From a virus (taxonomy: Duplodnaviria > Heunggongvirae > Uroviricota > Caudoviricetes): 14,526 nucleotides of DNA. The translations under genes and the position numbers were made by a program. Below, one piece after another: positions 2,033-14,505 of the stretch (position 1 is the stretch's first letter; every line of letters begins with the position of its first letter). The stretch is from positions 1 through 14,526 of IMG/VR virus record IMGVR_UViG_2778261256_000010; one strand, 5' to 3'. The notes under the pieces were generated by a model. It searched no databases and was not told the DNA's origin. It saw nothing but the letters and a program-made list of their open reading frames with translations.

Positions 2033-2509
2033 ATGTCCACAAGAACAGATTTGTCGAAAATCCCGTCTATCTCCGGAAACAACGGTTATTCGCTGCGCTG
2101 CCCGGAAGTGAAGCTCAACGGCCATGAGGCTCATTGCAGCTATACAGTCTGCCAACACACGATCCTCGCCTATAAAGAAAAACGTCTCCCGGCTACATCG
2201 TTCCAGTCCTGCGCTGCGGCTATTGCTGCTGGTAAATGTCAGGCACTGAAAATGATGGTCGAAGAGATCCGCAAAGACGAACAGCTCTACTTCATCGATA
2301 TGTCTTCACTTATCAAAGAAGTGGAAGAGCAAAACGACCATGCCAGAACGCTCCCCCGGAAGCGAAACACCGCGACAATTGACAGTCTTATTCATCGCAC
2401 GAAGAAAACAGAACCTGCTAAATCCGAAACCAATCCCACCGATTCACTGGCGCCGATCACTGACGTGTACGCGGCACTCATTGAAGAAGCAACCAAAGAA
2501 AACACATGA
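2033..2509 (+). CDS. hypothetical Cys-containing protein (158 aa)
   Basis: ORF directly upstream of and co-oriented with the ligase; five Cys in the N-terminal half (C23, C35, C40, C60, C69) suggest a possible metal-binding module. No family recognised. Weak RBS. Confidence 0.55.
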   Translation: MSTRTDLSKIPSISGNNGYSLRCPEVKLNGHEAHCSYTVCQHTILAYKEKRLPATSFQSCAAAIAAGKCQALKMMVEEIRKDEQLYFIDMSSLIKEVEEQNDHARTLPRKRNTATIDSLIHRTKKTEPAKSETNPTDSLAPITDVYAALIEEATKENT

Positions 2510-2543
2510 AAACTCCCGAGCGACCGATGGAGGTTAAACACTA

Positions 2544-3866
2544 ATGGAAAAACTGATCGCCCTAAAGCACAAGCTGGATGCTATTAAAACGATGGGAACC
2601 AACGCCAAGAAAGAGGCGCTGGCCAATCTGGATGAATTTGAACAGAGCATGGTCTCGCTAATGCTCAATCCATTCATTCGATTCGGTGTGAAGAAGTACA
2701 AAGTGGCCGAGCCACTCGATACTTCCGTACCCAGCGACCAGAAGGTAGTAGATCTGCTGGAGAAGCTGGCAGCGCGCGAACTGACCGGGAACATCGCTAT
2801 TGCTGCTGTCGAATCACTCGTTGCCTCGATGTGCGCTGACGGGCAGGACGTGTTTCGTCGCTTCCTGCTGAAAGATCCGAAAGCCGGTGTCGGCATCAGC
2901 CTGTGCAACAAGGTGTTCGAAAACCCAATTCCGAAGTTTGAGGTACAGCTGGCGTCTCCGTACAAGGAGAAAGGCGACAAATACCCATTTAAACCAAATC
3001 CAAAGGCCAAGTGGCCAATGATCGGCAGTCTCAAACTCGATGGTCTCCGGGTTATCTGCGAAGTCATCGTGGACGAGGGTGAGGTCAATTTCCTGACGCG
3101 CACCGGCAATCCGATTACGTCACTCGATCACCTTAAACCAGCCATGCTGGAGCGGGGCAGACTCTCCGGCTTCAATCACATCTTCTTCGATGGAGAGGGC
3201 ACTGCAGGTACATTCAACCAGTCAGTGTCGGCGCTTCGTAAGAAGAACGTGAAAGCCATTGGTGCCGTTTACCACATTTTCGATTTCTTCTTACCGGAGT
3301 GGCGTGCTCAAGCAAAAAGCAAAGAGTACCTGAAGACCGGTATGAAGCTGAAAGAGCGCCTGGCTATGCTGGTGGCGTTGTTCCGCAACACTTGCGTGGA
3401 AGATTATGCGCAAGATATCCACCTTCATCCGTTCTACATCATCCATAGCCACGAAGATTTCATCGAACGTTTCATGAAGCGACTGGACGAGAATGAAGAG
3501 GGAGAGATGGACAAAGATCCGGATTCAGTTTACGAGTTCAAACGTACCCGCAGCTGGTGGAAGCTGAAAGACGAGGATTCAGAAGACGGTGAAATCATCG
3601 ACTTCGAGCCTGGCGATCCGGATTCTGGATTTGCGCATACGCTAGGCAAGATAGTGATTCGTCTGGAGAACGGCGTCATCGTTCGTGCCAGCGGTATCAA
3701 GCATAAATACCTGGATGAAATCTGGAACAATCAGGAGAAGTATCGTGGACGCATCGTTGAGGTTCACTGCCATGAGAAAACGCCAGATGGTAGCTTGCGT
3801 CATCCACGTCTGAAGTGGCCTAAATGTCTTCGAGATACCGAAGATCGTATTGGAGATAAAGAATGA
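2544..3866 (+). CDS. ATP-dependent DNA ligase, phage T4 gp30-like
   Basis: RBS GGAGG upstream. Nucleotidyltransferase motif I KLDGLR (K164, 3033-3050), FFDGEG, WWKLK, and the C-terminal LRHPRLKWPKCLRD (motif VI-like). The N-terminal domain aligns by eye with T4 ligase (ARELTGNIAIAAVESL...ISLCNKVF...LASPYKEKGDK versus T4 TRKLTGNAAIEELTGY...VSIANKVW...LASSYDEKGINK). Confidence 0.85.
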   Translation: MEKLIALKHKLDAIKTMGTNAKKEALANLDEFEQSMVSLMLNPFIRFGVKKYKVAEPLDTSVPSDQKVVDLLEKLAARELTGNIAIAAVESLVASMCADGQDVFRRFLLKDPKAGVGISLCNKVFENPIPKFEVQLASPYKEKGDKYPFKPNPKAKWPMIGSLKLDGLRVICEVIVDEGEVNFLTRTGNPITSLDHLKPAMLERGRLSGFNHIFFDGEGTAGTFNQSVSALRKKNVKAIGAVYHIFDFFLPEWRAQAKSKEYLKTGMKLKERLAMLVALFRNTCVEDYAQDIHLHPFYIIHSHEDFIERFMKRLDENEEGEMDKDPDSVYEFKRTRSWWKLKDEDSEDGEIIDFEPGDPDSGFAHTLGKIVIRLENGVIVRASGIKHKYLDEIWNNQEKYRGRIVEVHCHEKTPDGSLRHPRLKWPKCLRDTEDRIGDKE

Positions 3867-4042
3867 TGCTCGGCTGGATGTTTGTATTTTTAGTCGTCGG
3901 CATTGTTATCGGAAGTCTGGTTATGTCCAGCTGTATCCACGATTACGTAAAAGCCGGTGTCATGCAAAGGCGAGGTCGTATTTATCGCATAGTAGATATC
4001 ACGGACACACTGAAGGAGATTAAGGATGATCATGTTAAGTAA
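3863..4042 (+). CDS. small membrane protein (59 aa), not in the supplied ORF track
   Basis: ATG at 3863 overlaps the ligase stop (ATGA); RBS GGAGA 7 nt upstream; MMLGWMFVFLVVGIVIGSLVMSS is a predicted TM helix; stop TAA 4040-4042. Translated by hand. Confidence 0.45.
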   Translation: MMLGWMFVFLVVGIVIGSLVMSSCIHDYVKAGVMQRRGRIYRIVDITDTLKEIKDDHVK

Positions 4043-4238
4043 ACGAGAGAAGGAAACCCTGCGTGAAATTAGCAAGTGGAAGGAGTTCTACGCCAACTGG
4101 AAGCCGAAGACCAGAGCCAAACTGGAGCGCATGAATCTTGTCGCCAACGTTTCTCCAAAGGGATGTATTGAGAACTATCAACTGACTGAAAAAGGTTATT
4201 TGTTGTTGCAGCAATTGACTGAGGCGGGGGCGCACTGA
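4026..4238 (+). CDS. small hypothetical protein (70 aa)
   Basis: Strong RBS AAGGAG (4013-4018) 7 nt upstream of ATG 4026; soluble, charged sequence; stop overlaps the next start. Confidence 0.55.
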   Translation: MIMLSKREKETLREISKWKEFYANWKPKTRAKLERMNLVANVSPKGCIENYQLTEKGYLLLQQLTEAGAH

Positions 4239-4390
4239 TGATTCCATACATCATTTTATCTTTTACTGGTGGCGTGGGCCTCGGCCTCGCAATCTGCCGC
4301 GCCCTGGTCCAGCAGGAACTGCAAACCAAAACACTTCGTGTCGGTAAGCGTGTGTATCGGGTTGTTCACGAGACGGGAGTGCGAAAATGA
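4238..4390 (+). CDS. small membrane protein (50 aa), not in the supplied ORF track
   Basis: ATG 4238 overlaps the upstream stop (TGATG); MIPYIILSFTGGVGLGLAICRAL is a TM helix; stop TGA 4388-4390 overlaps the ATG of the next gene (4387). Confidence 0.4.
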   Translation: MIPYIILSFTGGVGLGLAICRALVQQELQTKTLRVGKRVYRVVHETGVRK

Positions 4391-4692
4391 GCAATTTGAC
4401 TTCCTTCGACTGGTGGCTGGCAACCTACCTTGTGGCGGCCGGCTTCGGATTTGCCTTTTACATTGGTCAGTTAATCGTAAAGCTACTGCTGATCAGATTC
4501 GCCAGCCATAAACGCATAGACGACGGTCTGTGGCGTCTGGGGTCCCTGTTAGAGACGCATTACGGCGAACTCAAGGAAAACGAAACTATCACTATTCAAG
4601 CGAAGCGTTTTACCGCCATCATCACGAGAACTCCGGAACAAAAGGGGAGCCTGATCAAAAAGATAGCAACTAAACGCATCACAGATAGATAA
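4387..4692 (+). CDS. small membrane protein (101 aa)
   Basis: N-terminal TM segment WWLATYLVAAGFGFAFYIGQLIV followed by a charged C-terminal domain; translationally coupled to the preceding small gene. Confidence 0.6.
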   Translation: MSNLTSFDWWLATYLVAAGFGFAFYIGQLIVKLLLIRFASHKRIDDGLWRLGSLLETHYGELKENETITIQAKRFTAIITRTPEQKGSLIKKIATKRITDR

Positions 4693-4708
4693 GTATTTAC
4701 TTACTTAT
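4689..4708 (+). repeat. 20-bp motif ATAAGTA-NN-TACTTACTTAT, copy 2
   Basis: ataagtatttacttacttat, overlapping the stop codon of the 101-aa gene; followed by CTAATAT...TATAAGAT, which is shared with copy 3. Confidence 0.55.
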
Positions 4709-4884
4709 CTAATATGTATAAGATCACTTTGTTTTCGTTGAGATGCGACTGTTTGAACGTTAAATATAACTGCAAACGAAGATGCATACCTGGCAGTAGC
4801 CTAAGAAGCCAAACACCAGCGAGGTCAGTTTCCAGCCTCGTCACCAAAATGGGACACACTGAGCGAGTGTGATTGCAGAACGCA

Positions 4885-4916
4885 GAATAGGGCATATTGC
4901 ACCATCCATGCCCTAT
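4885..4916. other. perfect 10-bp-stem hairpin (AATAGGGCAT / ATGCCCTATT, 12-nt loop)
   Basis: Direct reading; no U-tract after it, so not a classical terminator. Confidence 0.5.
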
Positions 4917-5071
4917 TCAATGAAGTAACAGAATGGGCGGTTGGTTTCATCATTCCATTCACCCATCCCGGTTTCAGCTGACCGTCCATTCTGTTACGTC
5001 ATTTCCATTACTTATGTCGTTTATACTTGGGTTAAAAGCGGCGACGTAACCCGGCTGACTTGGTTAGTCAG

Positions 5072-5189
5072 CACATAACGTTGAGATCACTGATTTTTCT
5101 TAAAATCATACAGGCGATTCCACATAGCTGTAGCGACTGATCAATATGTTGGGTTGAACATTAATCGGTTCAGTGATCTCAACGTTGTG
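5072..5189. repeat. 17-bp perfect inverted repeat (5076-5092 / 5169-5185; 20 of 21 if extended) flanking a 76-bp spacer
   Basis: AACGTTGAGATCACTGA and its exact reverse complement TCAGTGATCTCAACGTT; three GATC sites within the element. Confidence 0.55.
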
Positions 5190-5435
5190 AAAGCAGGATT
5201 AATTAACCCTCTAGTGAAAACATTGTTGCCTTTATTGCCCCTGACTTCACAACATGTATGATTCCATACATCCAATAAGATCGAAGAATCTAACGGCAAT
5301 CAACCACCGAGAAAGATTCCAGATCTTCGCTCATATGAGCGAGCCACATACCTCGTCTGGCACTAACGTAAAGTGCAAGTTGCGGGAAAGTTTCTGGCTG
5401 CCTGGTTGTCCATAAGCTAGTACCGCCGCGAAAAT

Positions 5436-5510
5436 GATGGTGTAGCTCAGTGGTAGAGCGGTTGACTGTTAATCAACTGGTCGGTGGTTCGAGTCCACCC
5501 ACCATCGCCA
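5436..5510 (+). tRNA. tRNA-Asn (anticodon GTT at 5468-5470)
   Basis: Folded by hand into a full cloverleaf: 7-bp acceptor stem GATGGTG/CACCATC, D-arm GCTC-AGTGGTA-GAGC, anticodon stem GTTGA/TCAAC with loop CTGTTAA, T-arm GGTGG-TTCGAGT-CCACC, discriminator G, encoded CCA. Confidence 0.9.
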
Positions 5511-5764: not shown

Positions 5765-6313
5765 ATGACGATTATGGAGTCTATCGTGAAATTTAAAATC
5801 CAGCATTTGCAGGCAGCAGTGGCACTGGTTCTTGCCAGTATCCAGCCGCAACCCAAAGCGGTTGCGTGTCAGCCTACGATTGTAGAACGGGTTTATGAGA
5901 TGGGCGCTAGAGTCAACAAAACCGACATCAGTGATCTTACAGCTGCTCTCAATGAATTGGCTAAAGAACTGCGTTCAAGCCGCGCTGAACTTGCTCATTA
6001 TGCTGACACTGACTTCTTTGCTGCTATCAAAGTAGCGGAAGAAATTAAGAATCAAACTATTCATGTAGCCGGTATCGCAGAATCTTTTGTTTTGATGTTA
6101 CCTGAAAAAGACGTCATCATGTCTTACGACAAAAACACTGTTGAGTTTGCGTTTTTTAAGGCTATTAAAATGGTCAGTATTGCGACCAAAAACTATCTCA
6201 ATCTGATTGATCAGATTACACGCACTTCTGTAGTGCGTGACTCTGGTGTCAACCTTTTAGCCATGAACCATCTATTAGAGACTGGCAACAAGGCTGCGGC
6301 TAAATGGCATTAA
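5765..6313 (+). CDS. putative antitoxin-like partner of the YafO-family toxin (182 aa; true start uncertain)
   Basis: ORF ends 10 nt inside the toxin gene (6304-6313 overlap), the usual toxin-antitoxin coupling. No recognisable Phd/YefM or RHH sequence signature; much larger than E. coli YafN (~97 aa). Confidence 0.45.
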   Translation: MTIMESIVKFKIQHLQAAVALVLASIQPQPKAVACQPTIVERVYEMGARVNKTDISDLTAALNELAKELRSSRAELAHYADTDFFAAIKVAEEIKNQTIHVAGIAESFVLMLPEKDVIMSYDKNTVEFAFFKAIKMVSIATKNYLNLIDQITRTSVVRDSGVNLLAMNHLLETGNKAAAKWH

Positions 6314-6720
6314 CGGCTGAATACAGTCAAGTTACGTGGGATGATTTTTTTCAGCCCACTTTTGTCGTTTACCCTGACCTAGAAAGTCAGCTCAAATCCG
6401 AGTTCATTACTTACAAATCAACTGGCGCACCATCTAATCTTCTTGGACGAGATGCGCCATTTGACTTCCCGCCGTTCGCCGTTGATGCTAATGTCCAGCA
6501 TATTCACGTCAATTTGCATTTCCAGCTTACCTGGAACGCAAGGCAAGAGAACTACAACCGAACCTCAAACCACTATCTCGTTTATACCGAGCACATGTGG
6601 GATAGCGGGCGTTTTTTGCTGATGGGGCTAGTCACTCCAGCTCACGATCGTATGCCAGCAAGAGATACTAGGTTGCTCAGCTACTTCGCTGAAGTCGCAG
6701 AAGGTTTCCATTCTAGCTGA
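6304..6720 (+). CDS. yafO: YafO-family type II toxin (ribosome-dependent mRNA interferase family)
   Basis: Aligned by eye to my recollection of E. coli YafO: FITYKSTGAPSNLLGRDAPFD vs FISYKRDGVLPDIFGRDALYD; VQHIHV vs VAHIHL; RTSNHYLVY vs RTNDEAHLVY; FLLMGLVTPAHDRMPARD vs WLLIAILKPEPHKLARD. Confidence 0.7.
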   Translation: MALTAEYSQVTWDDFFQPTFVVYPDLESQLKSEFITYKSTGAPSNLLGRDAPFDFPPFAVDANVQHIHVNLHFQLTWNARQENYNRTSNHYLVYTEHMWDSGRFLLMGLVTPAHDRMPARDTRLLSYFAEVAEGFHSS

Positions 6721-6887
6721 ACTTTAGCGATCGTCATCTTCTTCATCATTCTTTTTCTTCTAACAAATCATTCTCATCAATCTGGCTCAGATGGCATTCC
6801 AAAGTTGGCGTTATTAGGCGCTTTTTACTATTTAGCGTTTAAGATGGTTTGTCTACATAATTTATTCAGAATTTACGTAAGCTATAT

Positions 6888-6922
6888 AAATGATTCCATA
6901 CTTGTAAGGTATGGAATCATTT
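6888..6922. promoter_or_regulatory. perfect 14-bp inverted repeat AAATGATTCCATAC-N7-GTATGGAATCATTT (candidate operator)
   Basis: Exact palindrome about 100 bp upstream of the recombinase ORF; shares the core TGATTCCATAC with the 15-bp direct repeats at 4238 and 5258. Confidence 0.5.
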
Positions 6923-6973
6923 TCAAAAACAGTCTATTTTACTGTTGATCATACAAAAACTGAGGCCTAACAC

Positions 6974-6992
6974 ACTGTTTATAAATACAGTA
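6974..6992. promoter_or_regulatory. LexA (SOS) box-like site, CTGT-N8-ACAG
   Basis: ACTGTTTATAAATACAGTA against the gammaproteobacterial consensus TACTGTATATATATACAGTA; AT-rich spacer; about 30 bp upstream of ATG 7021. It is the only CTGT-N8-ACAG I found in the window. Confidence 0.5.
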
Positions 6993-7020
6993 AAAACAGG
7001 CTTCACTCAGTGAGTGGACT

Positions 7021-8124
7021 ATGAAAAACACTTTTGATAAAGCACGCGCAGCAGAAAACACCTCTAGAGAAGCCATCGAGTATCTCGAACGCGCTTCCGG
7101 TTTGTCAGCAGTGTCGACCACCAATTTCGACGGTGACATGTCGTTTTCTTCCGCATTCATGTTATTCACTCGCTTATCTTTGCTGATAACGAGACGTCGA
7201 CCTGAAATAGCTGTTCATTGTATTTTGATACATGTAATGCCGCATATCTGTGAAGTAAAAGTAAGTGACATTAGTAGGGTTTTAGTCAACCAGCTGGTGA
7301 ACCCATTAATACTTGAGGGCAAGATCGTCCAGGGCAGACGTGTGTTCTCGCTGATGAAGCAGTTTCTCAGTTGGTGTGCATTTCAGGGCTTAATTGATAC
7401 ATCCCCATTGAACGATATGTCGCTTAACAGAGTAGCCGGTGGCGCGAAGCCCACGCCGCGCGAGCGCAAACTGACCGACGCAGAGGTCTGGGTCTTTTGG
7501 AATGTATGGGACTACTTCAACGTATGTGAGGGTACAAAGTGGGCGGCCAGATTATGCCTTGTAGCGGCCAGACGACCAGATGAAGTGCTCCGAGCTAAAA
7601 GATCAGAATTCAACCTCGAATATAATTTATGGAATCAAGGAACGAGGAATAAATCGGCTCGCCAGCACTCGTTACCATTAAGCCCGCTAATGCGCAAATG
7701 TGTTGAGGAGCTGATCAAATACGGAAAAGGCAGCCAGTGGCTTGTTCCTTCAAACAAGAAACAGGGTGAGGATGTGCCAATGTCTAAGGTGGCCATATCA
7801 CAGGCGTTGAGAAGGATTTTAGAACGTCCAGAGTTGATGGAGCTTGAGCCATTTACCCCCCGAGATTTGCGTCGTACTGCGCGTAGTTACTTCCCCGCGT
7901 TAGGCATAAGTCAGGAGGTATCCCGCAAAATTATGAACCACAGTCTTGAGGGGATAGATCGAGTATACGATCGACACGATTATATAGACGAGATGCGAGA
8001 CGCCTTAAACAGTTTTTCGGCGTACATCGCATCAATCGTAGAGAAACAGGATTTAGAGGAGATAGATCATAAGTTCAAGGGAGATCGACTCGCTACTGAG
8101 CTAATCCGTGTAAATTTCTCATAG
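7021..8124 (+). CDS. tyrosine recombinase/integrase, P4-like catalytic core; arm-binding N-terminal domain absent, first ~60 aa unrelated
   Basis: Core-binding-like segment from about aa 70 (HVMPHICEVKVSDISRVL...VFSLMKQFLSWCAFQGLIDTSPLNDMS); catalytic signatures ARRPDEVL (box I Arg), FTPRDLRRTA (box II, with R where His is usual), NHS, and RVYDRHDY (catalytic Tyr). Confidence 0.65.
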   Translation: MKNTFDKARAAENTSREAIEYLERASGLSAVSTTNFDGDMSFSSAFMLFTRLSLLITRRRPEIAVHCILIHVMPHICEVKVSDISRVLVNQLVNPLILEGKIVQGRRVFSLMKQFLSWCAFQGLIDTSPLNDMSLNRVAGGAKPTPRERKLTDAEVWVFWNVWDYFNVCEGTKWAARLCLVAARRPDEVLRAKRSEFNLEYNLWNQGTRNKSARQHSLPLSPLMRKCVEELIKYGKGSQWLVPSNKKQGEDVPMSKVAISQALRRILERPELMELEPFTPRDLRRTARSYFPALGISQEVSRKIMNHSLEGIDRVYDRHDYIDEMRDALNSFSAYIASIVEKQDLEEIDHKFKGDRLATELIRVNFS

Positions 8125-11413: not shown

Positions 11414-11680
11414 ATGACCGCTACTGCACTACAGCAAGAAGAACATTTGCCGGAAGCCATCGTCTGCAAGTGGTGTGGCAAATCCTTTCATTACCTGAAA
11501 TCCCATATCTCTATGGGCCGTTGCGAGAATATTCCTGAGTCTGCGAAGGGTCTGGACGTGGACGAAGTGGTGAAGATGTACACCTCTGCGTTTCCAGATG
11601 AACCAACGATCTCTCGCACGGCACTGGCCAAACTCAATGAGAAGGGGTCGTTTGCGGGAGGGGGCGGAATCCTACGCTAA
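11414..11680 (+). pseudogene. Ros/MucR-type zinc-finger mini-protein, 3' end replaced by the Tn3-family inverted repeat (native part 11414-11643)
   Basis: RBS AAGGA 6 nt upstream. IVCKWCGKSFHYLKSHI matches the Ros/MucR zinc-finger IVCLECGGSFKSLKRHL, and SRTALAKLNEKG matches ARSRLAKEMGLG. From codon 78 the ORF is encoded by the transposon IR (GSFAGGGGILR). Confidence 0.5.
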
Positions 11681-11681
11681 G
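11644..11681. repeat. Tn3-family 38-bp terminal inverted repeat (GGGG...ACGCTAAG)
   Basis: GGGGTCGTTTGCGGGAGGGGGCGGAATCCTACGCTAAG; outer GGGG at 11644; the tnpA stop (CTA on +, 11677-11679) lies inside the IR, as is typical of the family. Confidence 0.8.
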
Positions 11682-14449
11682 GCTTTGGCCAGCGATATTC
11701 TCCGGTGAGATTGATGTGTTCCCATCCGAGCGGCGAAACATGGGCCAAGAGATCGGGCGATAGCAGCTTTCCATCGCGTTTCTGGTTTGCAACGACCTCG
11801 CCGAGCTTCATGGTGTTCCAGAAGATGATGATGGCGGCGAGCAGATTCATGCCGGCGATGCGGTAATGCTGGCCTTCGGCGGAACGGTCGCGGATTTCAC
11901 CGCGGCGGTGGAAGCTGATTGCCCGCTTCAGCGCATGATGAGCTTCGCCTTTGTTGAGCCCGATCTGGGCACGCCGTTGGAGTTCGGCATCCAGAATCCA
12001 GTCGATCATGAACAGGGTGCGCTCGACGCGACCGACTTCCCGCAGGGCTGTCGCGAGCTCGTTCTGCCGCGGATAGGAGGCGAGTTTCCGCAGAATCTGG
12101 CTTGGCGCGACGGTCCCGGCAGCAATGGTGGCGGCGATGCGCAGGATGTCGGGCCAATTGCGCTCGATCATGGCTTGGTTGACCTTTCCGCCGATCAACG
12201 CTCGCAGGTGCGCCGGGGCGGCCGACGGATTGAACGCGTAGAGCCGTTTGGATGGCAGGTCGCGGATGCGCGGAGCGAACCGGTAGCCGAGAATGGCACA
12301 TGCGGCAAAGACGTGATCGGTGAAGCCGCCCGTGTCGGTGAACTGCTCGCGGATATGGCGTCCAGCATCGTTCATCAGCAGGCCATCGAGGATGTAAGGC
12401 GCTTCGCTTGCCGTTGCAGGAATCACCTGGGTTGCGAACGGCGCATATTGGTCGGAGACGTGGCTATAGGCTTTCAGGCCCGGGGTATTGCCATATTTCG
12501 CGTTGACCAGGTTCATGGCCTCACCTTGCTCTGTAGCGACGAAGAACTGTCCGTCGCTCGAAGCCGACGTGCCCATGCCCCAGAACCGGGCCATGGGTAA
12601 CGCTGCCTGTGCCTCGACCACCATGGCCAGCGCCCGGTCATAGGCTTCGCCCTCGACATGCCACCGTCCAATGCGGATCAATTCCCAGAAGGTGTGGGTG
12701 TTTGTCGCATCCGCCATTTTGCGCAAGCCGAGGTTGATCCCTTCCGCCAAGATAACGTTCATTAGCCCGATCCGGTCAGCGCAGGGTGCTCCTGTGCGCA
12801 GATGGGTGAACGCTTCGGTGAAGCCGGTCGCCGCATCCACCTCCAGCAGGAGATCGGTGATGCGCGTGGGCGGGATCTGCTTGTAGAGATCGAGCACCAG
12901 ATCTTCGGCGCCTGTCGGCGCGGCGGCTTCGAGTTTCTCGATATGCAGAACGCCGTTTTCAATCGACCCGCCCGGGATCGTGCCTGCGCGAGCGGCACGG
13001 CCAAGCTCGCGCAACCGCATGTCGAGGCGAGCTTGCCGGTCTGCCAGCCATTCCTCCGGCCGCAATGGCACAGCGAGACGACCGCCTTCCGCGATGGATT
13101 GTGCCGGAACGAGTGCGTGTTTCAGATCGCCATAGCGCCGGGACCTAGTAAGCCAGACATCTCCGGAGCGGAACGCATCGCGCAGATGGAACAGCACCGC
13201 GATCTCCCATAGGCGAGCGTCGCCAGCCCTCTGGGCCCGAAGGTGGCGATGCCATTTCGAGCTGGGCCGCAAGAAGCTGGTCATCGCGGCATCGTTCAAA
13301 CCGGTACGAAGGGCCGTCACCGCTTCCAGAAGCGGCAGTGCAACGGGCGCAGCTCGCAGATCGAGCAGGCGCAACATGCGTGGAGCGTATCGGCGGAAGC
13401 GGTGATAACCGTCGAGCACATGATTGAGCGGATCGTCGGCCATGGTGGCGGTCAGCCTGGTTGCCATTGCAACAAGGGTTTTTAAGCCGTCCCACCCTGA
13501 CCCACTCGCGATGACATCGCCCAGCGGCTGGCCATCATCCTGTGCATCGACCAGGGCGCCCCCGATCTCGGCGAAGGATTTCAGGGTGTCACGCACCACC
13601 CCCGCTTCGTCTGCGACCTTTGCATGGCAAATACGCTCCGAAGCACGGTAGAGACGGCCGACGATCCGGTCGTGGGTTTCGACCACTGCGTCGGCCAACA
13701 TCGCCTGCCATTCCGAGACGCAAACAGCCAAGATCGCAAGCCGCCTGTCCTCCGGGAGATCGCGCATGCCGTCGGCATAATACCGTTCACCCTGCCTGCG
13801 CAGACGAGTCACCCGATGGGCAGGAACGCCGGCAAGCAGATCCTCGGGGAGATCGATGCGTTGCAGATATTCGAGCCGGTCGAGCAGCCGGTTGGCCGAC
13901 GAAGAGTTCGAGCCAGGCTCGAACTGGCGCAGCCACACAAAACGGGTCACCCGATCATCAGCCGTCTCCTCGAGCAATGCCAGCAACTGTTCTCGGATCG
14001 ACATAGGCAGCCGACTGGCGATCCTCGTCTCGATGCGTCGCTCGGCATCGACGAGAGCCGCGGCACAAAGCCGCTCGATCGTGGATGTCGCGGGAAGGAC
14101 AGTGCGGGTGCGTCGGCACTCGGCTACGAAGCGACGGGCGATATCCTCGTTCGACACCGCCATCTCGGCTTCTCGGAACAACCATTCCTTCAGCTCGCTC
14201 GCACCACGTCCGGAGAAGGTGCGGAAGCCGTAGAGCCCCCGTAACTCGGCAAGATGCTCGTGCCGTGTTTCCTCGCGGGCAGCATAGTCTACGAGATCGT
14301 CGGCACCCAGGCCAAGCTGCGCTCCGATAAATTCGATGACCTCTGCAGGGATCAGTTCGCCTGGAGCCAGCACCCGGCCGGGATAGCGCAGGACACACAA
14401 TTGCAGGGCGAAGCCGAACCTGTTGTGAGCGCGCCGACGCAGCCTGATA
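11644..14449 (-). mobile_element. Tn3-family transposon remnant (one IR plus 5'-truncated tnpA; no res, tnpR or cargo in view)
   Basis: High-GC block bounded by the 38-bp IR on the left and the IS10 outside end on the right. Confidence 0.8.
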
Positions 14450-14505
14450 CTGATGAATCCCCTAATGATTTTTATCAAAATCATTAAGTTAAGGTAGATA
14501 CACAT
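11677..14505 (-). CDS. tnpA: Tn3-family transposase TnpA, 5'-truncated (first ~18 codons of the ORF are IS10-derived; native part 11677-14449)
   Basis: 942-aa ORF; C-terminus ...LSPLGWEHINLTGEYRW is the Tn3-family signature; N-proximal SIRLRRRAHNRFGFALQLCVLRYPG matches Tn21 TnpA near residue 37-60 (recalled), so about 35 N-terminal residues are missing. Opposite-strand ORFs in this block are GC-rich shadows. Confidence 0.9.
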   Translation of the reverse strand: MCIYLNLMILIKIIRGFISIRLRRRAHNRFGFALQLCVLRYPGRVLAPGELIPAEVIEFIGAQLGLGADDLVDYAAREETRHEHLAELRGLYGFRTFSGRGASELKEWLFREAEMAVSNEDIARRFVAECRRTRTVLPATSTIERLCAAALVDAERRIETRIASRLPMSIREQLLALLEETADDRVTRFVWLRQFEPGSNSSSANRLLDRLEYLQRIDLPEDLLAGVPAHRVTRLRRQGERYYADGMRDLPEDRRLAILAVCVSEWQAMLADAVVETHDRIVGRLYRASERICHAKVADEAGVVRDTLKSFAEIGGALVDAQDDGQPLGDVIASGSGWDGLKTLVAMATRLTATMADDPLNHVLDGYHRFRRYAPRMLRLLDLRAAPVALPLLEAVTALRTGLNDAAMTSFLRPSSKWHRHLRAQRAGDARLWEIAVLFHLRDAFRSGDVWLTRSRRYGDLKHALVPAQSIAEGGRLAVPLRPEEWLADRQARLDMRLRELGRAARAGTIPGGSIENGVLHIEKLEAAAPTGAEDLVLDLYKQIPPTRITDLLLEVDAATGFTEAFTHLRTGAPCADRIGLMNVILAEGINLGLRKMADATNTHTFWELIRIGRWHVEGEAYDRALAMVVEAQAALPMARFWGMGTSASSDGQFFVATEQGEAMNLVNAKYGNTPGLKAYSHVSDQYAPFATQVIPATASEAPYILDGLLMNDAGRHIREQFTDTGGFTDHVFAACAILGYRFAPRIRDLPSKRLYAFNPSAAPAHLRALIGGKVNQAMIERNWPDILRIAATIAAGTVAPSQILRKLASYPRQNELATALREVGRVERTLFMIDWILDAELQRRAQIGLNKGEAHHALKRAISFHRRGEIRDRSAEGQHYRIAGMNLLAAIIIFWNTMKLGEVVANQKRDGKLLSPDLLAHVSPLGWEHINLTGEYRWPKP

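Follow-up and report, generated by a model that had tools for sequence, protein, structure and literature searches.

Four small genes at the end of a replication block

The window analysed here, a stretch of 14,526 nucleotides, represents an SSU5-type phage-plasmid, and its positions 3800-4750 are 100% identical to the E. coli plasmid pLAO18. On its plus strand a DNA ligase gene is followed by a chain of four small genes, orfA to orfD, which by their geometry appear to be coupled to it, and by an inverted repeat at the end of orfD. The features of the locus are as follows.

2544..3866, plus strand, ATP-dependent DNA ligase, 440 aa (PF01068 E=8.5e-12; phrog_114 E=8e-123; dN/dS ~0.05)
3852..3855, plus strand, GGAG Shine-Dalgarno motif of orfA (7 nt to ATG 3863, 10 nt to ATG 3866)
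3866..4042, plus strand, orfA, 58 aa (59 aa counted from ATG 3863; phrog_4381 E=1.9e-39)
4013..4018, plus strand, AAGGAG Shine-Dalgarno motif of orfB (7-nt spacer, within the 3' end of orfA; conserved)
4026..4238, plus strand, orfB, 70 aa (phrog_4054 E=1.5e-45)
4226..4230, plus strand, GGGGG Shine-Dalgarno-like motif of orfC (7-nt spacer; CAGGAG in relatives)
4238..4390, plus strand, orfC, 50 aa (phrog_6302 E=1.3e-32)
4375..4379, plus strand, GGGAG Shine-Dalgarno motif of orfD (7-nt spacer, within orfC; conserved)
4387..4692, plus strand, orfD, 101 aa (phrog_4507 E=2.1e-59)
4686..4711, no strand, perfect 10-bp inverted repeat with a 6-nt spacer (TAGATAAGTA-N6-TACTTATCTA), found by repeat search and spanning the orfD stop

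The ligase stop codon TGA occupies positions 3864-3866, with ATG codons at 3863 and 3866, while the orfB stop and orfC start share TGATG at 4236-4240 and the orfC stop and orfD start share ATGA at 4387-4390. The four reading frames and these start/stop overlaps lie where the original prediction had placed them. A further junction missing from it, between orfA and orfB, is a 17-nt overlap (4026-4042) that is kept in 65 of 67 loci. Where the window has the first ATG of orfA (3863), SSU5 and relatives from Enterobacter, Y. pestis and Cronobacter have CTG, so the conserved start is the one at 3866, which gives a 1-nt TGATG overlap and a protein of 58 aa. Across relatives the overlaps are maintained at 1 nt (ligase/orfA), 17 nt (orfA/orfB), 1 or 4 nt (orfB/orfC) and 4 nt (orfC/orfD), the ATGA at the last junction being present in 87 of 88 loci.

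All four genes have a Shine-Dalgarno motif 7-10 nt upstream of the start, and the sequence ggagataaaga is conserved in every locus that bears orfA. Stop/start overlaps together with Shine-Dalgarno motifs in the upstream gene, both conserved in relatives, are the features of a translationally coupled operon. With a separate motif for every start within the gene before it, translational coupling of the chain is plausible; the 'stoichiometric co-translation' proposed earlier would be a reading of overlap geometry only. Four overlapping junctions in a row occur nowhere else in the SSU5 annotation, in which a hand count gives 1- or 4-nt overlaps at ~14 junctions in ~125 CDS. Overlapping genes are common in this genome, so that coupling is no proof of a shared function. 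A promoter and terminator scan found no terminator past orfD and no convincing internal promoter. The core of the inverted repeat, TAAGTATTTACTTA, is conserved in relatives; the repeat, a candidate hairpin or operator, marks the end of the chain.

Beyond the repeat, conserved non-coding DNA at ~4725-5003 holds an unannotated tmRNA-like tag frame. Between an in-frame TGA at 4754 and this frame (4772-4804), which reads ANEDAYLAVA*, there is no ATG, and the frame shows the GCA resume codon, the lack of a start codon and the hydrophobic Ala-rich C-terminus of a tmRNA tag. Nine tag-peptide variants exist, with synonymous third-position changes, and the element is common to unrelated phage groups, with copies in Felixounavirus, Kuttervirus and Carvajevirus. 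ARAGORN finds no tmRNA in this region, RF04321 reaches 19.9 bits where its gathering score is 47, and 4690-5440 contains no T-arm motif; a tRNA-like domain, as judged by an acceptor stem with G3:U70, a T-arm, CCA or the Rfam gathering threshold, was not found at 4725-5003. This neighbour is potentially more important than the chain, since the interplay between phages and ribosome rescue could be affected by a tag template that a phage carries.

Conservation, variation and expression of the chain

Relatives keep the four frames intact, with 62-94% amino-acid identity, substitutions are concentrated at third codon positions, and pairwise dN/dS values, where computable, range from 0.02 to 0.42 (0.07-0.16 for orfA and 0.18-0.42 for orfC). 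These results show that orfA to orfD are genuine genes under purifying selection at the 3' end of a replication-gene block. They are also catalogued proteins already and not new to databases. They are members, with no difference, of PHROGs 4381, 4054, 6302 and 4507 (SSU5_045-048; 'hypothetical proteins' of the pMT1/pHCM2 type), all of which carry the label 'unknown function' and match over the full protein length (E=1e-32 to 1e-59). The concern that such genes would be missed by default annotation is justified for orfC in some gene tables and for orfA in that of Cyrano, but not for SSU5 RefSeq, pJN2-26 and several plasmids, where all four are annotated. Gene order and overlaps are identical in SSU5, pJN2-26, Cyrano, Y. 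pestis pMT and Cronobacter plasmids, and the four families are confined to SSU5-like elements. Scans of Pfam, NCBIfam and PADLOC gave sub-threshold noise only, and no homology to any characterised protein was detected in these collections, in PHROGs or, with the orfB and orfD profiles, in the PDB.

The architecture of the chain varies among related loci. We compared 96 sequences, the window and 95 loci, a set in which orfD is over-represented because most loci were retrieved through it. The arrangement LABCD is found in 67 of these, 15 lack orfA, nine have only orfC and orfD, and two have orfD only. For example, one distant element (L098) carries the ligase gene followed by orfC and orfD only, and at loci L100-L103 orfD alone is retained; orfD also persists in elements from which the ligase gene is deleted or absent. 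No other member of the chain is as persistent, and orfC and orfD probably form the ancestral core pair. In Klebsiella variants the orfC tail and orfD are swapped for a 138-aa tail-anchored membrane protein, with the replication genes kept. The architecture counts and this replacement suggest that the chain is accessory and exchangeable.

In SSU5 the chain lies at 40,950-41,776, among helicase, primase, ligase and polymerase genes. An annotated holin-endolysin-Rz/Rz1 cassette is located at 27,556-29,000, after the tail genes and ~12 kb away, so that the chain does not adjoin an endolysin gene. RNA-seq of a Cyrano lysogen places the homologues of orfB to orfD at background, as is the ligase: CYRAN_36-39 have 5.9, 6.4, 5.0 and 7.6 normalised reads, a level similar to that of the late structural genes CYRAN_1 (7.1) and CYRAN_2 (8.4), and the moron CYRAN_40 has 151 (PMC9928086 S1 table). 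Known toxin-antitoxin genes and morons stand 6-700 fold over background in the same data (PMC9928086). From this lysogen transcriptome, which is silent on induced cells, orfA to orfD appear to be lytic-cycle genes; our literature search brought up neither a transcriptome of the induced state nor a functional study of these genes.

Three predicted membrane proteins and a predicted winged helix

The original prediction gave three of the products one hydrophobic helix and a short charged tail. For OrfA, OrfC and OrfD the helix is supported by their best 19-residue Kyte-Doolittle windows (KD19; 2.57, 1.83 and 1.84), and their tails are basic, but that of OrfD is ~65 residues long. OrfA has an N-terminal transmembrane (TM) helix at ~residues 2-24 with G12xxxG16, a dGapp sum of -2.2 on a Hessa-type scale and a basic tail with RRGRIYRIV. 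OrfC begins with MIPYI and has its helix, also with G12xxxG16, at ~residues 2-24, followed by the tail KQELKTKTLRxGKRVYRVVHET; its dGapp sum of ~+2 makes this a borderline TM call. Homologues of OrfC form 74 clusters at E<=0.01, and those on long contigs are on contigs of ~100-110 kb. By hhalign, OrfA and OrfC align without gaps over 50 columns (P=1.6e-5, score 27.6; shuffles 10.9 +/- 2.4), and bridging sequences exist (for example P0167 and the 55-aa protein of L098), which points to the two being paralogues. They would be duplicates of a single 50-58-aa peptide with a common GxxxG TM helix and R[IV]YR[IV]V strand.

OrfD is composed of a TM segment at ~residues 9-37, again a borderline call (Hessa-type score ~+2), a conserved part predicted to be cytoplasmic (KRIDDGLWRLGSLLE..YGELKE..ITIQAKRFTA) and a variable basic C-terminus. 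AlphaFold2 (AF2) models it with low confidence (pLDDT 64) as a helix at 6-60 and a hairpin at 67-80, a model too poor to serve as a query by fold. Profile-profile comparison of OrfD with OrfA or OrfC was not significant, and the likeness of KRFTAIITRT to KRVYRVVHET is by eye only. Its profile retrieved 18 matches from 1.84 billion representatives, nearly all D-like proteins or fragments as large as those of SSU5-like elements, with no distant characterised relatives among them, and a PDB sequence search with the profile gave nothing significant. Its database name, 'C-type natriuretic protein', is unsupported, as OrfD matches no Pfam family and the name is not used in the literature, and we treat it as a propagated misannotation.

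OrfB, a basic protein, is without a hydrophobic helix (best KD19 window 0.03) and is predicted to be soluble. Its AF2 model (pLDDT 72) has the elements H-H-E-E-H, and nearly all of the top 50 Foldseek matches in the PDB are winged helix-turn-helix proteins, with probabilities up to 1.0 and TM scores of 0.7-0.8, although E values are only 0.03-0.15. Sequence-level matches were insignificant, both in Pfam and in a profile search of the PDB. By topology and by Foldseek (best E ~0.03) the model resembles the winged-helix domains of MarR, PadR and TubR; OrfB differs from these proteins in having only 70 aa and no dimerisation or ligand domain. It is therefore predicted, from the modelled fold, to be a minimal winged-helix protein of DNA-binding type, and it may have entered the chain together with OrfA. 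We also considered OrfB as a regulator of the palindrome at 4686-4711, a conjectural candidate site, and set this aside, since elements without orfB keep the palindrome core, so that there is no co-occurrence signal between the two.

Possible role of the chain

We propose that ribosomes ending the ligase gene would re-initiate along the chain in lytic development and that its products would be made together. For OrfA, OrfC and OrfD we predict an N-out, C-in orientation in the inner membrane, because positive charges are lacking ahead of the helix and 3-4 Lys/Arg follow it within 15 residues. OrfC and OrfD would probably pair by means of the small residues in their TM helices and of their short beta-hairpins in the cytoplasm, which is pure inference. 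Our tentative suggestion is that the products may form a complex in the inner membrane, accessory and exchangeable, which would work from the cytoplasmic side on some membrane-associated process of the host in lytic growth. Host takeover, a cell-division block or exclusion would be examples; the complex would be neither a lysis system nor a core replication factor. The explanation as a whole, of real coupled genes, lytic co-production and an accessory membrane complex with an OrfC-OrfD core, is the best we can offer and has a reasonable chance, somewhat short of even, of being right.

The T4 exclusion proteins Imm and Sp and the phi29 replication anchor p16.7 are small inner-membrane proteins of early lytic infection. 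By analogy, OrfA, OrfC and OrfD would resemble them as short bitopic proteins that are encoded among early or replication genes and apparently lytic. T4 Sp works in the periplasm, however, whereas the conserved parts of OrfA, OrfC and OrfD are predicted to be cytoplasmic, and p16.7 has a DNA-binding domain, whereas OrfD has no recognisable one.

The position beside replication enzymes would fit a replication-linked role equally well. OrfD, with OrfC and OrfA, might hold the replisome, or phage DNA under replication, at the inner membrane in the manner of phi29 p16.7 and p1, with OrfB as the DNA-binding partner. The coupling to ligase between helicase/primase and polymerase genes, the predicted fold of OrfB and the OrfD model, in which an N-terminal anchor leads into a long helix and a small, basic domain in the cytoplasm, are consistent with this proposal. 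Nevertheless, we consider it unlikely: orfA and orfB are dispensable in many elements, orfD persists without the ligase gene, and the Klebsiella variants keep their replication genes though an unrelated membrane protein replaces the orfC tail and orfD. Moreover, no DNA-binding domain is detectable in OrfD, and no sequence or fold match to p16.7 is known.

The holin/antiholin reading of the original prediction appears very unlikely. It would make the products further holin-, antiholin- or pinholin-like proteins, which would time lysis by depolarising the membrane or by adjusting the action of the canonical holin. Small size, one or more TM helices and a charged C-terminal tail (net positive in all three) are what OrfA, OrfC and OrfD share with lambda S105/S107 and T4 T/RI, which is a loose criterion for a holin. 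The ATGATG dual start of orfA in the window is in keeping with this idea, but its first ATG is not conserved. T4 lysis regulators are scattered rather than clustered and could serve as a precedent by analogy for a set outside the lysis cassette. Against it, SSU5 has a complete cassette 12 kb off while the chain belongs to the replication block, no holin family of Pfam or PHROGs matches, and the functional tail is predicted to be cytoplasmic.

Highly improbable is a toxin, abortive or exclusion module, in which toxic membrane peptides with OrfB as regulator or antitoxin would serve plasmid maintenance or phage exclusion in the lysogen: small hydrophobic peptides do adjoin a small predicted DNA-binding protein, and phage-plasmids are rich in toxin-antitoxin and defence genes (a YafO toxin is encoded in the window), but no PADLOC or toxin family matches were obtained, and type I toxins such as Hok, Ldr and TisB are stand-alone transcribed loci with a promoter and an antisense RNA, whereas orfA to orfD, because they overlap their neighbours, show no such signals of their own. 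A constitutively expressed version of the small membrane toxin, as in post-segregational killing, conflicts with the background level of the orfB to orfD homologues in the Cyrano lysogen, 6-700 fold below known toxin-antitoxin genes and morons (PMC9928086 S1).

Phage-plasmids of the SSU5 type are frequent in clinical E. coli, Klebsiella, Enterobacter and Salmonella and occur in Yersinia pestis as pMT1; 777 plasmid records matched. Hardly any of the small genes of these phage-plasmids has been studied. On present evidence the small phage genes of the chain form an ordinary cluster that addresses no open question. That its members are real genes, apparently lytic in timing, three of them predicted to be membrane-anchored and with an OrfC-OrfD core, narrows the experiments needed to find their function. 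It is a more doubtful speculation that OrfC and OrfD, with OrfA and OrfB, constitute an unrecognised membrane-anchored, lytic-only module specific to SSU5-type elements that either tethers replicating phage DNA to the inner membrane or stops a membrane process of the host, for example cell division. If true, this module would define a new family of phage host-takeover peptides.

Overlapping genes downstream of the ligase gene

Over positions 2500-5000 the window shares 92.6% identity with Salmonella phage SSU5 and 76-78% with both Escherichia phage Cyrano and Klebsiella phage pJN2-26. Positions 3800-4750 match the E. coli plasmid pLAO18 (NZ_OP242248.1, 111.9 kb, IncFIB) at 100% identity, and 777 plasmid records contain related DNA, their hosts being Klebsiella, Escherichia, Enterobacter, Salmonella, Yersinia pestis (pMT), Citrobacter and Cronobacter. 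These matches to the three phages and the plasmids identify the window as an SSU5-type phage-plasmid. In SSU5 the tRNA-Asn gene directly precedes the CobT-like gene, whereas the window carries extra genes at 5765-8124; it also has a transposase gene at 11677-14505:

within 5765-8124: 182-aa ORF, not at this place in SSU5
6304-6720: YafO-family toxin (PF13957), extra relative to SSU5
7021-8124: tyrosine integrase, extra relative to SSU5
11677-14505, minus strand: Tn3-family transposase

Four small genes follow the ligase gene, with boundaries from the ORF list and the sequence:

2544-3866, plus strand: ATP-dependent DNA ligase (PF01068, phrog_114)
3863/3866-4042, plus strand: orfA; Shine-Dalgarno motif GGAG at 3852-3855
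4026-4238, plus strand: orfB; motif AAGGAG at 4013-4018, 7-nt spacer
4238-4390, plus strand: orfC; motif GGGGG at 4226-4230, 7-nt spacer
4387-4692, plus strand: orfD; motif GGGAG at 4375-4379, 7-nt spacer

The three start/stop overlaps of the original prediction are exact by ORF list and sequence. Because the relatives in SSU5, Enterobacter, Y. pestis and Cronobacter have CTG in place of the ATG at 3863, ATG 3866 is the conserved start of orfA; it overlaps the ligase gene by 1 nt (TGATG). The orfA/orfB junction, missing from that prediction, is a 17-nt overlap in 65 of 67 loci, and the ATGA overlap of orfC and orfD is kept in 87 of 88. All four starts have a purine-rich Shine-Dalgarno motif, and these motifs are conserved in relatives along with the overlaps. 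By hand count, the SSU5 annotation contains about 14 junctions with a 1- or 4-nt overlap, and the stretch from ligase to SSU5_048, the orfD homologue, is its sole run of four consecutive overlapping junctions. Coupled translation along ligase-A-B-C-D is plausible.

A-D are real genes. Their reading frames are conserved in homologous loci, all four being intact in relatives by tblastn (62-94% amino-acid identity), and substitutions are concentrated at third codon positions. In comparisons with five diverged elements, limited to pairs with unsaturated dS, Nei-Gojobori dN/dS is 0.07-0.16 for orfA, 0.06 for orfB (against SSU5, dS being saturated against the other elements), 0.18-0.42 for orfC and 0.02-0.10 for orfD; that of the ligase gene is about 0.05. 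Two of the small genes had been expected to be missed by default annotation, which is true of orfC in some gene tables and of orfA in that of Cyrano, but all four are annotated in the SSU5 RefSeq record, pJN2-26 and several plasmids. In Y. pestis pMT (locus L006, 1567-2393) the four small genes are all intact and adjoin caf1R, the F1 capsule operon regulator; the ligase gene upstream is truncated beside an IS100 element.

Predicted proteins and their history

Three single-transmembrane peptides had been proposed, and A, C and D indeed each have one N-terminal hydrophobic segment (best 19-residue Kyte-Doolittle window 2.57, 1.83 and 1.84), but B has none (0.03 only). A scores as clearly transmembrane (-2.2) on a Hessa-type scale (after Hessa et al. 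2005), while C and D are borderline (about +2), below every neighbouring-protein segment scored (minimum +3.2). The helices of A, C and D have a basic tail, with no Lys/Arg before the helix and 3-4 in the next 15 residues; by the positive-inside rule this asymmetry predicts N-out/C-in insertion. Our alignments show that A and C have in common G12xxxG16 in the helix and R[IV]YR[IV]V in the tail. Compared as profiles, the two align over 50 columns with no gap (P=1.6e-5), and the real score of 27.6 exceeds 100 of 100 shuffles preserving helix/tail composition (10.9 +/- 2.4) and 100 of 100 tail-only shuffles (16.6 +/- 1.4). Sequences intermediate between the two exist, and by these comparisons A and C are paralogues. 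The AF2 model of D, of low confidence (pLDDT 64), has a long helix (residues 6-60) and a hairpin (67-80), and conservation of D is highest in the segment KRIDDGLWRLGSLLE..YGELKE..ITIQAKRFTA, predicted to be cytoplasmic. Homologues of D are widely named 'C-type natriuretic protein' at NCBI; no Pfam family matches orfD and we found no supporting literature, so that the name looks like a propagated misannotation. B models as a winged-helix protein: its model (helix-helix-strand-strand-helix, pLDDT 72) matches MarR/PadR/TubR-type domains with probability 1.0 and TM 0.7-0.8, at E-values of only 0.002-0.1, the protein being so small.

A-D have no matches in Pfam, NCBIfam or PADLOC and match four PHROGs, each annotated 'unknown function'; they are thus members of catalogued, uncharacterised phage protein families. 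A search of 1.84 billion proteins with a profile of D yields only 18 representatives, and homologues of D, B and C lie on contigs that typically measure about 100-110 kb, judging by those of sufficient length. We compared 96 sequences (95 related loci and the window), most retrieved via orfD, so that D is over-represented. Ligase-A-B-C-D occurs in 67/96, the pattern without A in 15, C-D only in nine (six with a ligase remnant), A-B-C with D absent in two, D alone in two and A-D with ligase absent in one. In the metagenomic element L098 the ligase gene is followed by a 55-aa C homologue (P=2.7e-15 to C, 7e-5 to A) and a D homologue, still overlapping, without A or B; in loci L100-L103 a D homologue stands alone directly 3' of a 146-aa protein that elsewhere lies 5' of ligase. 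C-D thus persists, and from these gene contents C-D, or D alone, would be the old core; A would be a duplicate of C that joined the chain together with B. In the Klebsiella variants L013 (2439-3006) and L014 (2064-2949) the C tail and all of D have given way to an unrelated protein of 138 aa that has a hydrophobic anchor at its C-terminus, and in L014 an in-frame deletion has removed the helix of orfA. The C/D slot acts like an accessory region open to exchange, tending to hold membrane proteins.

A tmRNA-like element downstream of orfD

The stop codon of orfD lies within a perfect 10-bp palindrome (4686-4724 region), and 3' of this palindrome a weak promoter-like pair, TTTACT-17 nt-TAAGAT (8/12 matches), was read by eye; together they could be an operator/promoter for a downstream RNA or an operon-ending hairpin. 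At 4725-5003 lies an unannotated tmRNA-like element more conserved than the flanking genes: non-coding 4693-5000 shares 78-90% identity with elements to which the A-D genes are only 63-79% identical. The frame at 4772-4804 (GCA AAC GAA GAT GCA TAC CTG GCA GTA GCC TAA) reads ANEDAYLAVA* and is similar to ANDENYALAA, the ssrA tag of E. coli; upstream is an in-frame TGA at 4754, with no start codon between. Nine variants of the peptide occur in 96 of 105 sequences searched, with synonymous changes (GCC/GCT/GCA, TAC/TAT, ACA/ACG). By blastn the tag-bearing block is present in 396 phage records, including Felixounavirus (wV8, ANDNVFLAVA), Kuttervirus (Vi01, ANDNTFLAVA) and Carvajevirus (ANEEMYLAVA), and among the matches listed all fall in unannotated DNA or under 'hypothetical protein'. 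A covarying pseudoknot (stem 1 CGAGG/CCUCG versus UGAGG/CCUCA; loop-to-downstream pairings UCCA/UGGG, CCAA/UUGG, CCGA/UCGG and CCAG/CUGG) and hairpins lie 3' of the tag frame. Rfam tmRNA models score below threshold (RF04321 19.9-29.2 bits, gathering score 47; RF00023 15.4 bits), ARAGORN reports no tmRNA, and a search of the window for a tRNA-like domain found none. In wV8 (locus L104, 1202-1284) a D-arm-less tRNA-like gene directly 3' of the tag element, with a G3:U70 pair, encoded ACCA, acceptor stem CGGGGCG/CGCCUCG and T-arm GCGGG-UUCGAGU-CCUGC, scores 31.7 bits against Rfam tRNA, is not called by ARAGORN and could be the tRNA-like partner. An exhaustive 2014 survey confined phage ssrA to mycobacteriophages and Bacillus phage G (PMC4131195). 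We found no report of this element in the literature, and it is potentially much more interesting than the A-D chain. The remainder of the 740-nt gap (5004-5435) before tRNA-Asn (5436-5510) has long inverted repeats (5074-5093/5170-5189 and 5184-5206/5231-5253), whose arms show compensatory changes relative to Cyrano (ATCACTGA/TCAGTGAT versus GCCATTAC/GTAGTGGC), suggesting a larger structured RNA.

Expression and proposed role

We favour the view that A-D form an accessory, exchangeable inner-membrane complex whose target would be a membrane-associated process of the host. In SSU5 the chain (40,950-41,776) is flanked by helicase, primase and ligase genes and, at its other end, by genes for a tRNA, a CobT-like protein and DNA polymerase. 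This neighbourhood and B itself would fit a replication tether like phi29 p16.7, the likeliest of three rivals, but the dispensability and replaceability of the small genes do not. The earlier likening to holin/antiholin sets is disfavoured by this position among replication genes and by the separate, canonical holin-endolysin-Rz/Rz1 cassette of SSU5 at 27,556-29,000, 3' of the tail genes, which also make a lysis-timing function improbable. Normalised reads in the transcriptome of the LF82 lysogen (PMC9928086, S1 table) are 5.9 for Cyrano ligase and 6.4, 5.0 and 7.6 for the B, C and D homologues, similar to the late structural genes CYRAN_1 (7.1) and CYRAN_2 (8.4), whereas the moron CYRAN_40 reaches 151 and toxin-antitoxin genes exceed background 6- to 60-fold. 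Ligase and the B-D homologues are therefore off in this lysogen, which disfavours the least likely rival, a lysogen-active toxin or exclusion module, the small membrane toxin once suggested included; like ligase, the chain genes are presumably lytic-cycle genes.

Small coupled phage membrane-protein genes are a familiar kind of thing; new here are the A/C paralogy, the C-D core and the winged-helix call for B, as qualified above, and the exclusion of the lysis-cassette reading. In the proposed accessory complex C and D would associate, and the complex may act at the cytoplasmic face of the membrane, on a process of the host, during lytic growth.
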